A stretch of 40,198 nucleotides of DNA from the NCBI GenBank assembly GCA_043812495.1, contig JBDRMG010000024.1, positions 1 to 40,198 on the forward strand, given 5' to 3'. Origin of the DNA: Candidatus Omnitrophota bacterium. Its GTDB lineage: Bacteria; Omnitrophota; Gorgyraeia; Zapsychrales; JBDRMG01. The position numbers are program-made. Shown one piece after another: positions 9,001 through 12,000 of this stretch (positions are counted from its first letter, which is position 1; the number at the start of each line of letters is the position of its first letter).

Positions 9001-12000
9001 AAAAAAGCACAGGAAGGCTTGACCACGCTCGATGAAGTTTTGCGGGTGACAGAGGTGGAGCTGTGATTGAGGTTACTAAGGTTACAAAAGTTACTAAGGT
9101 TACTAAGGGTTGCACATGCGGGCGTACGAAAATCTTAAATTTTATCAGAATATTTGTGAAATTCGAAGACTAATTATCAAAACAACCAATCCTTTAAGAA
9201 AATCACACCTGAGACTTGTTGGTCAGATGGCCGATGCGGCAAGAAGCGCAAAACAGAATATTCGAGAGGGCTACGCGAAGGACAGCGCCGGACAATTCGC
9301 GAATTCGATAAAAATCAGCAGAGGATCCTTAGAAGAACTCCGGGGCGATGTGGATGATTGCCTGGAAGACGGATTAATAGGAGAAAATATTCATAAGCAA
9401 TTAAGCCATCTATTCGAAATGACTTTTATCCAGATTGATCGATATTTGGATTCTCTTTATCGATTAGACAAAGAAGGAAAATGGAAAACCCGCTTTAAAA
9501 GATAGGCCAACTCATAAAATGATTAACTTTTGTAACCTTTGTAACTGTAGTAACATTAGTAACCAATATTACTTAAGATTTTTCAAATGACAACATACCA
9601 CTACAAAGCCAGAGACAAATTCGGAAAACTCATTTCAGGAGCTATGGGTGCTGACTCCGAAAAGGCCGTGGCCACAAAGCTCGAACAAATGGAATATCTT
9701 CCGATTACGATTCAAGCCGCCAAGGGCGCGCCGCAAATCGGCAAATTCTTTGACCGCTTCAAAGGCATCAAATTCTCAGATTTAAACATTTTTACTCGCG
9801 AGCTTTTTGTCCTGCAAAGAGCGGGTCTTGCGCTTTTGAGCAGCCTGCGCGCTTTACAGGAACAGGCCCCTAATCCAATCTTTAAAAATGTCCTAGGTCA
9901 GGTGATAAGGGATATTGAAGCCGGTTCCACCTTATCCGATGCCCTGGCACGGCATCCGCGTATCTTTAATTCCCTCTATGTGAGCATGGTCAAATCAGGA
10001 GAAGTCTCCGGACGGTTGGATGAGACCTTGGACCGGTTAGCGACATTGGGCGAGCATGATGAACAAATTCGCATGCGTATTCAGGCCGCCATGATGTATC
10101 CGTCGATTGTGGTGGTGGGGCTGATCGTTGGTTTTTTAATTCTGGTCACAATGGTTATTCCGCGTTTTGCGAATGTGTATAGCCGGTTCGATTCGGCCTT
10201 GCCGCTTCCAACGCAATTTCTCATCGGCGTCAATTATGTGATTACGCATTTCTGGTGGATGATTATTCTTGTCATTTGCGGCTTAATTGTCTTATGGCAG
10301 CAATTTGTCAAGACATCGAATGGGATGCTATGGCGTGATTCTCTTCGGCTGAAAGTTCCTGTGTTTGGTCCGCTTGTTTTTAAGATGATTATGTCAAGAT
10401 TTTGCCGAGCTACAGGCATTTTGATGCGCAGTGGCGTTCCCATTTTGCAGATTTTGGAACTTGTTTCTGATGGCGTGGGCAACATTGTTATTTCCAGGGC
10501 AATCCAAAAAATAAAAGAAAGTGTTAAAGAAGGCAAAGGCATGTCAGCGCCTATGAAAGACAGCGGCTTATTCCCGCCGATTGTGGTCCAGATGGTCTCC
10601 GCAGGGGAGAGCACCGGAAAAGTAGATGAATTGCTCTTGCATGCCTCGGATTATTTTGATTTGCAGATTGACCACACGATCAGAAATCTTGTTTCTCTCG
10701 TTGAACCGATCTTGATTGTCATCTTAGGGCTTGTTGTTTTGGTCATGGCCCTGGGCATCTTCTTACCCATGTGGAATCTGATGCATTTGTTTAAGAGATA
10801 AAAATACTTTTTATTGTAATTGTCAAAGAAATTTCACCAGAGTATAATGATAACAAAGTGAAATTATTGAGAACTCAAAAACATTTAAAAAGGAGGGAAG
10901 GTATGGATTGGTCAAAGAAAGGTTTCACGTTGATTGAGTTGATCATGGTTATCGTTGTTTTAGGCATCTTAGCGGCTGTGGCTATTCCGAGATTCTTTGA
11001 TCTACAGAATGATGCGAATGATGCGGCTGAACAAGGTGTCATAGGAGGCGTGAGGGCCGGTATTGCGACCGAGCACGCCAATACGCTCGCCGGCGGAGGA
11101 ACGGGTTATACAGCAACTTTAGATGCTGCTGCCAGTGCAGCGTGCTCTACGGCTAATCCTTGTTTTGGCACGGTATTAGATCAAGGTGGCATTACGGGTG
11201 GAGGTTGGACGAAAACCGGTGCTACGGCCTATACGCATACGGGCACTAATACTAGTACGTATACTTATACTCCAGCCAATGGATCATTTTTGTGTACATT
11301 AAATTGTCCGTAATTCAGATAATGCTTCTTTGATTTGTTAGCCATTTGAGTTTGTTTTTAATATTTCGGCCCTTGACATCTTTGATGTCAAGGGCCGATT
11401 TCATGTCCGTTACCTGCTATTCCTTCCCTTGCCTTGATTTTTATAATCAATACTAAAACAAGTATTCATTCAATGCTATAATACATTTATTCATGGATAT
11501 GAAATTTGTGAATTTTAAAGAAAAGAAAGGCATTACCCTCGTCGCCTCGGTTATGCTCCTTGTTTTTGCCTCCATAGCGGTTCTGGGCGTGACTACCTTT
11601 ATTGTCCAGAGACTTGCGTTGGATGAAGTCAAGCTCATCCAAGCCAAAACCATTTACCTTGCGCAGGCAGGGCTGAACCAGGCGATTTATGATTACCGCA
11701 TAAACGGTTTTATCAAATATGGCCAGATCTATATTGACGCCAATCATTTTTTTGTCTTAGGCGGATCCTCAGCAGGCGGATCCACAGCCGATTCCCTGAT
11801 GGTTGATACGTCGCGGATGAACTTCAGTTCCAACAGAAGAGACCTGGACGATATCCTGATTCGAAACGCAAACGCCCTGCCCATCACCATTGACCGTATG
11901 ATTATTACGTGGAGCGACTTTGTTCCTCCGGCAAGCCGATTGCAAAGAATCCGCATAGGAAATTCATGGGTCTGGAGCGGTAATCTCGCCTCGCCGGCTG

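Follow-up and report, generated by a model that had tools for sequence, protein, structure and literature searches.

The window analysed here is a stretch of 40,198 nucleotides from Candidatus Omnitrophota bacterium (contig JBDRMG010000024.1, positions 1 to 40,198), and in it a small unit lies between two pilus genes. The upstream host gene encodes a PilB/GspE-type ATPase (pilB, 7381..9066, + strand; PF00437 with E 1.3e-143, and PF05157) and the downstream one PilC/GspF (pilC, 9587..10801, + strand; PF00482 with E 1e-59). The pilB stop codon (9064-9066) is 4 nt upstream of a left arm (9071..9113, + strand) that consists of five units of a 9-nt repeat with the core GTTAC, starting at 9071, 9080, 9089, 9098 and 9108. 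The arm ends 2 nt before the ATG of an ORF for a 129-aa four-helix-bundle protein (9116..9505, + strand), assigned to PF05635/TIGR02436 by profile and by the fold it shares with XCC0516 (S23p), BT_0352 and Avd. Then comes a right arm (9523..9564, − strand) of five inverted units of the same GTTAC-core repeat, and 22 nt past it pilC starts at 9587. pilB, the small ORF and pilC are all on one strand. Over 36 nt (9071-9106 and 9529-9564) the complementarity of the arms is 86%, and a pattern of three units has five matches in the window, every one within the two arms, with none in 100 shuffles. The statement of the genome-wide survey's note that a small gene lies between pilB and pilC inside inverted arrays is thus borne out by the ORF list, Pfam, the repeat arms and the shuffles. 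Folding of the whole 551-nt region pairs the two arms, with modest stability (z −1.86 against shuffles, 3 of 100 of which were equally good). A second inverted pair (9129-9145 and 9566-9582; 17 nt, 82%) relates the start of the ORF to the stretch preceding pilC and may be due to chance.

The left junction is not merely an assembly product, since 8997-9155 is matched with no differences by one depth-2 contig of a public run, which may not be independent. No RNA run was listed as containing this sequence. Four public DNA runs with a low share of this organism gave no joint across the cassette at a cover too sparse to be informative, and among public sequencing runs no close empty allele of the pilB|pilC site was found. 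The focal gene lacks the features of a classical IS or MITE, with no transposase domain detected by Pfam, and a single-protein query of viral contigs found no relative of its product.

The 129-aa protein scores well above the cut-offs of PF05635 (53.2 bits against 33.8) and TIGR02436 (45.6 against 24). Its AlphaFold2 prediction is a four-helix bundle (pLDDT 95) to which the closest structure is XCC0516 (2gsc_A; Z 17.7, rmsd 1.3, 112 aligned), with BT_0352 (Z 14.1) and Avd (Z 13.5) the next matches of the predicted model. Avd is an RNA-binding pentamer that works with a reverse transcriptase. Structure comparison gave no homing-endonuclease fold in the PF05635 family, for which we know of no catalytic site or role. 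In a 46-row alignment of the subfamily, with three homologues that have stops or long frames left out, 24 positions are invariant, including an acidic face of helix 3 (E74, D78, D81 and D85). The 2GSC (XCC0516) entry has five chains, the S23p family structure is a homopentamer according to the available text of PMC4990558, and by analogy the focal protein would form a homopentameric ring. Twelve pairs of cassettes at shared sites were compared for dN/dS; the seven with measurable dS gave 0.02-0.11, like the adjacent host genes, so the ORF is under purifying selection. Four pairs were saturated, and in these the cassette protein is more conserved than its host neighbours, while the remaining one (0.18) is probably not orthologous. 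The host order has 145 PF05635 matches in 31 of 41 genomes, and 14 of the 145, counted by eye, contain stops.

At the pilC loci of relatives the gene is absent (0 of 29 others, 40 relatives searched), and the eight closest pilB-pilC orthologues (55-61% identity) are empty, with pilB, a short spacer and pilC. A metagenome scan found homologues elsewhere, at 80 loci of 42-74% identity, 70 of them non-redundant with full flanks. Sixty-seven of these 70 have at least two GTTAC-like units before the gene and at least two inverted units after it, and 55 have at least three on each side, a 3+3 arrangement present in 0 of 154 control pairs. The same layout is found in 65 of 84 family members in the host order. 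The neighbours are from dozens of unrelated families. Arms and gene constitute a discrete unit. Successive units of the homologue arrays are mostly 10 nt apart (296 intervals) and less often 9 nt (65), and five units is the modal arm length (26/62 left, 17/62 right) in a wide spread from 2 to 12. The repeat had been taken to be private to each copy. Its fine sequence is indeed locus-specific; its core, which travels with the protein subfamily, is common to the 67 loci and to gene-less hairpins of the same genome, and so is not private.

The two arms of a cassette co-evolve. Left and right arms of one locus match each other better than arms drawn across loci (49.7 versus 28.8, p 5e-5, 63 loci), the own right arm surpasses that of the nearest protein relative in 42 of the 63, and a second comparison gives 40.4 for own partners versus 19.0 for those of other loci. 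For the GxxExxY cassettes, the second family of the genome, motif similarity tracks protein identity (Mantel rho 0.48, p 0.001, n=14). For 84 four-helix cassettes of the order there is no overall tracking (rho 0.03, p 0.19), and the rise above about 55% identity is explained by shared descent alone.

Several homologue loci have features of their own. At L009:2922-3402 a 69%-identical cassette is also just after a pilB-type gene, with a different gene downstream. Around the homologous cassette of L039 there is a 111-nt, 96% direct repeat (124-234 and 731-841) comprising upstream sequence and four array units; loss of the segment between them by deletion would reduce the cassette to one arm. Loci L024, L030, L033 and L063 have the gene between two complete hairpins, or one arm plus a complete hairpin. 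Among the array loci, a 10-nt unit that shares the core forms long, satellite-like runs at L124, L149-L191 (one Rhodobacterales assembly) and L192-L194, amounting to many kb in one assembly.

Cassettes lie where one gene stops and the next starts. Of 62 loci, 58 have an upstream ORF that ends on the same strand, and for 42 of these the distance from its stop to the array is no more than 15 nt or the stop falls within the first units (median 2.5 nt). In the host order the ORF ahead of the cassette is on the same strand in 50 of 54 cases; for comparison, an element with symmetric ends would be in sense half the time by chance, and 85% of adjacent ORF pairs of this genome (1262/1482) are co-directional. 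Two junctions, picked for survey because cassettes were there, reveal repeated gain and loss. At fabH|fabD, 25 orthologous loci comprise 7 bare junctions, 8 with four-helix cassettes, 4 with gene-less hairpins, 1 with a single arm and 5 others; at V-ATPase B|D the 28 loci comprise 13 bare, 3 with cassettes, 3 with gene-less hairpins, 3 with single or other arrays and 6 others. The repeats at one junction vary from genome to genome. On a protein tree from a short alignment (104 columns, 84 rows, no AU test) the eight proteins of the fabD site fall into four separate groups, among proteins from other sites, and the three of the V-ATPase site into two. No target duplication is visible at fabH|fabD among the genomes compared, which are too distant for this.

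In the genome itself, profile searches match three PF05635 genes and two PF13366 genes, each flanked by inverted arrays with differing motifs; the other four small genes, four-helix and GxxExxY, are thus where the survey had placed them. Of the operon hosts it had named, Pfam bears out both V-ATPase B|D and grpE|dnaK; in the Tad pilus row the neighbours are without a Pfam match at 1e-4. Its statistics of flank-duplex energy are reproduced (mean −27.9, sd 7.4, for 716 ORFs of fewer than 260 aa). A re-run with our own start positions gave −44.2, −49.1, −33.3, −46.4 and −48.7 for the five cassette genes, which in the same order rank about 16, 7, 157, 10 and 7 of the 716. The copy at V-ATPase has the weaker stem, as had been said, and lies outside the top 16 that hold the other four; ordinary ORFs among the 716 also have strong flank pairing by energy alone, another point on which the survey was right. 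Three inverted units on both sides are found among these ORFs at cassette genes only (three of the five). The grpE|dnaK copy (C64:61013-61762 in the contig numbering of the survey; locus L004) has the additional feature that GrpE has no stop before the left array and its C-terminal tail is about 70 residues of translated repeat: the GrpE domain ends at residue 171, the repetitive tail follows, and the array has replaced the stop codon.

Many arrays have no gene between them. An intergenic scan of this genome gave 42 head-to-head hairpins without an ORF (0-1 in five shuffles), 6 of which are, by eye, other repeat types. The remainder, about 36, which the survey had missed, outnumber the gene-bearing cassettes approximately 7:1. 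Copies are up to 91-96% identical over 140-180 nt. Two, about 70% alike, are of the focal motif family, many share their motifs with the flanks of the two GxxExxY genes, and others have motifs that in relatives flank four-helix genes, the cognate gene being absent from this 90%-complete assembly. One host repeat has 11 copies with and 11 copies without a hairpin of the kind that has the ends TGAT...ATCA; for a second host repeat the numbers are 4 with and 1 without. Filled and empty copies reveal no target duplication of more than 1 nt, and the inserts, 71-90 nt, differ from each other. Insertion is the simpler reading, and the exact ends may also be precise deletions. The same ends are found, by eye, on 6 of 14 GxxExxY cassettes of the order, and it needs to be kept in mind that these exact boundaries pertain to a GxxExxY-type motif and not to the focal GTTAC family. 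The two host repeats are MITE-like, built of abutting hairpins, and receive the array hairpin at an internal junction (for instance C22:16175, C40:1881, C33:8960-9141, C1:6255-6396 and C21:55394). There is also a hairpin family of about 210 nt with a 9-nt unit and the core AAGGC, 71-85% alike (C3:28284-28495, C33:14008-14220, C11:19445-19663 and C50:9298-9511), for which no cognate gene was found.

Outside the order the array occurs widely, in most cases with no gene of this subfamily. An array-first scan there examined the first 80 of 158 stretches, and with 28 satellite loci of one genome dropped, 52 were left; 1 of the 52 GGTTAC-array loci is near the gene subfamily, as judged by the subfamily profile only, and 7 have an inverted partner array.

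With its layout repeated at 67 of 70 loci and its junctions bare in some genomes and filled in others, the 9071-9564 unit is very probably a mobile cassette, and the survey's notion of a class of mobile, promoterless, stem-bounded cassettes in transcribed operons stands, without the RNA excision that it had joined to it. The explanation that we favour, with a probability of roughly 0.5, is that this is a promoterless DNA cassette whose protein recognizes and spreads its own array, in the manner of RAYT/REPIN or Ssn/NTS. The unit would be a left array, one small gene and a right inverted array, with no promoter of its own. Comparison of loci shows that it inserts in sense at the stop-start junction of co-transcribed host genes, where the gene would be expressed by read-through. 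The protein most likely recognizes its array in the form of a single strand of nucleic acid that has folded back into a long stem. In the four-helix family each subunit of a pentameric ring could bind one repeat unit, which the five-unit modal arm would suit, allowing for the wide spread of unit numbers. The cassette would be copied or inserted with the help of its protein, which would also act in trans on gene-less hairpins that have identical ends, a role that RAYT has for REPIN and that has been proposed for Ssn/NTS. A GxxExxY protein may itself cut, and a four-helix protein would depend on a nuclease or recombinase, either the host's or a co-resident one. Once a gene is later lost, what is left would be a hairpin or a single arm. 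Insertion of such cassettes into rDNA, where their stem is incidentally a substrate of RNase III, would have given the ORF-bearing 23S rRNA intervening sequences (IVSs). For the specific proposition that the cassette protein acts on its own array in mobility, the chances seem about even. Against the favoured explanation, purifying selection in apparently vertical pairs is unlike an idle selfish gene, several gene-less motif families are without a cognate gene in an assembly that is 90% complete, motif similarity of the four-helix cassettes does not track the protein overall, and just one of 52 GGTTAC-array loci of other genomes is near the gene subfamily. Movement by way of a resident reverse transcriptase was considered as well and is not favoured, such an enzyme being found in 7 of 41 genomes of the order.

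There is a different view, one to which we give a minor but real chance: the hairpins could be REP-like and moved in trans by another enzyme, an HUH/RAYT-like transposase or a small GIY-YIG nuclease, with the genes as passengers kept by host benefit or addiction, for example by binding the RNA array and tuning downstream translation. The excess of gene-less hairpins over cassettes, dN/dS as low as that of host genes at shared sites, motif turnover faster than that of the four-helix protein and the seven PF01797 matches of the genome all accord with it. Six of those PF01797 genes, however, are flanked by other inverted repeats and not by these arrays. The occurrence of 3+3 units at cassette genes only, among 716 small ORFs, argues that the arrays take no random passengers, and the stops in 14 of 145 PF05635 matches, together with gene loss at many sites, limit any addiction.

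The survey's own model was one of RNA: pairing of the two arms within the mRNA would give a stem for cutting or splicing out, in the way RNase III treats 23S rRNA IVSs, and this obligatory excision would be why the cassette is tolerated. The build resembles that of the Coxiella burnetii IVS, whose stem RNase III demonstrably cleaves (PMC4990558, as far as its text is available), and the better match of own-partner arms and the near-universal sense orientation also speak for it. On the sense strand, G.U exceeds A.C among the mismatches of the arms (140:96, p 0.005; 125:95, p 0.05; and 19:12). However, the excess is small, with other mismatches 2.5-3 times commoner than G.U in arm pairs; it is also present in cross pairs of arms (1069:852), is absent in gene-less hairpins (49:41), and could be caused by strand-biased mutation. 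RNase III was found, with two models, in just 2 of 41 host-order genomes, mostly more than 90% complete, although 31 have a PF05635 gene; PF00636 has three further weak matches in the 41, within giant frames. Its reported absence from the present 90%-complete genome was confirmed with both models, and how rRNA matures in this lineage becomes a question in itself. Since the left array at grpE|dnaK encodes the tail of GrpE, a message cut in the stem would there be stopless, and the fold of the whole focal region reaches a z of only −1.86. Excision as in rRNA is therefore unlikely, the obligatory form of the model decidedly so, and we conclude that stem cutting is a consequence of residence within rRNA and not the rule for cassettes.

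A further possibility is that cassettes spread between hosts by homing or exchange, recombining into conserved junctions or a resident hairpin, with no self-transposition to new sites. A few junctions are filled far above the few per cent that holds genome-wide here (13/25 at fabH|fabD), the identity between cassette proteins at times exceeds that of the host proteins beside them (76% versus 58%; 85% versus 71% and 58%), and at L039 a long direct repeat surrounds the gene. As one protein subfamily is at dozens of unrelated junctions, unrelated lineages with unrelated repeats share one junction, and the PF05635 family is without a homing-endonuclease fold, we regard this as very doubtful. That the focal gene is an ordinary one whose repeats are due to chance or resemble terminators, or that the assembly is at fault, might be argued from the ordinary ORFs that also pair strongly by energy, and is excluded for practical purposes by the comparative data: 0/100 shuffles, the layout in 67/70 homologue loci and 65/84 order members, and a junction present in a public contig.

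Returning to the favoured reading of a cassette whose protein spreads its own array, a more ambitious form, which we offer tentatively and consider less probable than not by a good way, is a widespread class of mobile elements without a transposase. At each end of such an element a co-evolving array of some five short repeats would be bound by a pentameric ring that is no enzyme or, in sister elements, by a very small PD-(D/E)XK nuclease, and the protein would direct insertion to stop-start junctions in transcribed operons. Such a class might be the common source of ORF-bearing rRNA IVSs and of many unexplained intergenic 7-10-mer arrays, and would provide a first function for S23p. The comparisons suggest that the gene-carrying rRNA intervening sequences are one case of a wider mobile element. 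If it is one mobile system, the origin and function of IVSs and the origin of the arrays both become testable with a 500-bp unit, by asking whether the protein binds the array and whether the unit moves. The family reshapes junctions of core operons, for fatty-acid synthesis, V-ATPase and chaperones, and even rewrites the C-terminus of GrpE. No published description of repeat-armed PF05635 or GxxExxY operon cassettes was found in full text, a literature that included few subscription papers and no supplements. The term GxxExxY occurs in three records of the literature searched, in one of them for a gene adjoining a reverse transcriptase; that it is known from 23S IVSs, as the survey had it, finds no counterpart in the accessible rRNA-insertion text of PMC11270868, which names only LAGLIDADG, GIY-YIG and 23S_rRNA_IVP.

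Among known systems, the 23S rRNA IVSs, as far as presented in the available text of PMC4990558 and PMC11270868, are like the cassette in protein family, long terminal stem, tandem repeats before the start and ORF-less versions at the same sites. In Coxiella burnetii the IVS is closed by a 28-bp terminal stem, which RNase III cuts, and inside it heptamers in tandem precede the S23p ORF (PMC4990558, same portion); this shared build ties the two classes together. The focal arms, 36 nt and 86% complementary, are such a stem. Its neighbours, by contrast, are pilB and pilC and not an rRNA gene (no 23S gene is assembled in this genome); cassettes are between protein genes at dozens of unrelated sites, their host order is mostly without the RNase III that cuts 23S IVSs, and their ORF is under purifying selection, whereas that of the Coxiella IVS is reported to be decaying in the available part of PMC4990558, which settles neither where ORF-bearing IVSs come from nor what their protein does.

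Avd of diversity-generating retroelements (PDB 4DWL, 8UB7) has the same fold at an identity of just 5-6%. The focal gene has pilus genes as neighbours and no linked reverse transcriptase or template and variable repeats, and PF00078 was found neither in this genome nor in 34 of 41 of the order. The heptamer arrays TAACTGA of Beggiatoaceae (PMC4679880) and GGGAATC of Xanthomonas (PMC4692102) resemble the cassettes in their short period, position at gene junctions and partly convergent pairing, going by the accessible text, which leaves their origin open. The terms 'four helix', 'S23' and 'intervening' are absent from both papers, which make no link to these genes.

Closer in proposed mode of action are two systems that pair a gene with its own repeat. 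In RAYT/REPIN, on the basis of the text available in PMC3116915, a gene has cognate flanking repeats, many gene-less hairpins are extragenic and several gene-repeat pairs occur per genome, all as here, including the dispersed gene-less doublets. The cassette, unlike RAYT/REPIN in that same text, has no HUH (Y1) domain flanked by its repeat, its arms are tandem 7-12-nt units and not 16-40-nt palindromes, and the gene-bearing unit itself is at many sites. RAYT-like HUH (PF01797) genes with short inverted repeats of their own are present separately in the genome (C45:202-1198, C4:1222-2215 and C2:46101-47079). Ssn/NTS, a small GIY-YIG single-strand DNA nuclease with its repeat, likewise has a small single-domain gene, its own flanking repeat, variants that follow the protein and gene-less copies (PMC11893778, in the portion available, the term 'four helix' not occurring in the paper). 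It differs in its GIY-YIG domain, the focal gene having PF05635/TIGR02436-type matches only, and cassette proteins are four-helix bundles or PD-(D/E)XK, with arms that pair across the gene. By analogy, then, the cassette appears to work like RAYT/REPIN and Ssn/NTS and yet belongs to neither, and it is by location that it stands apart from the rRNA IVSs.
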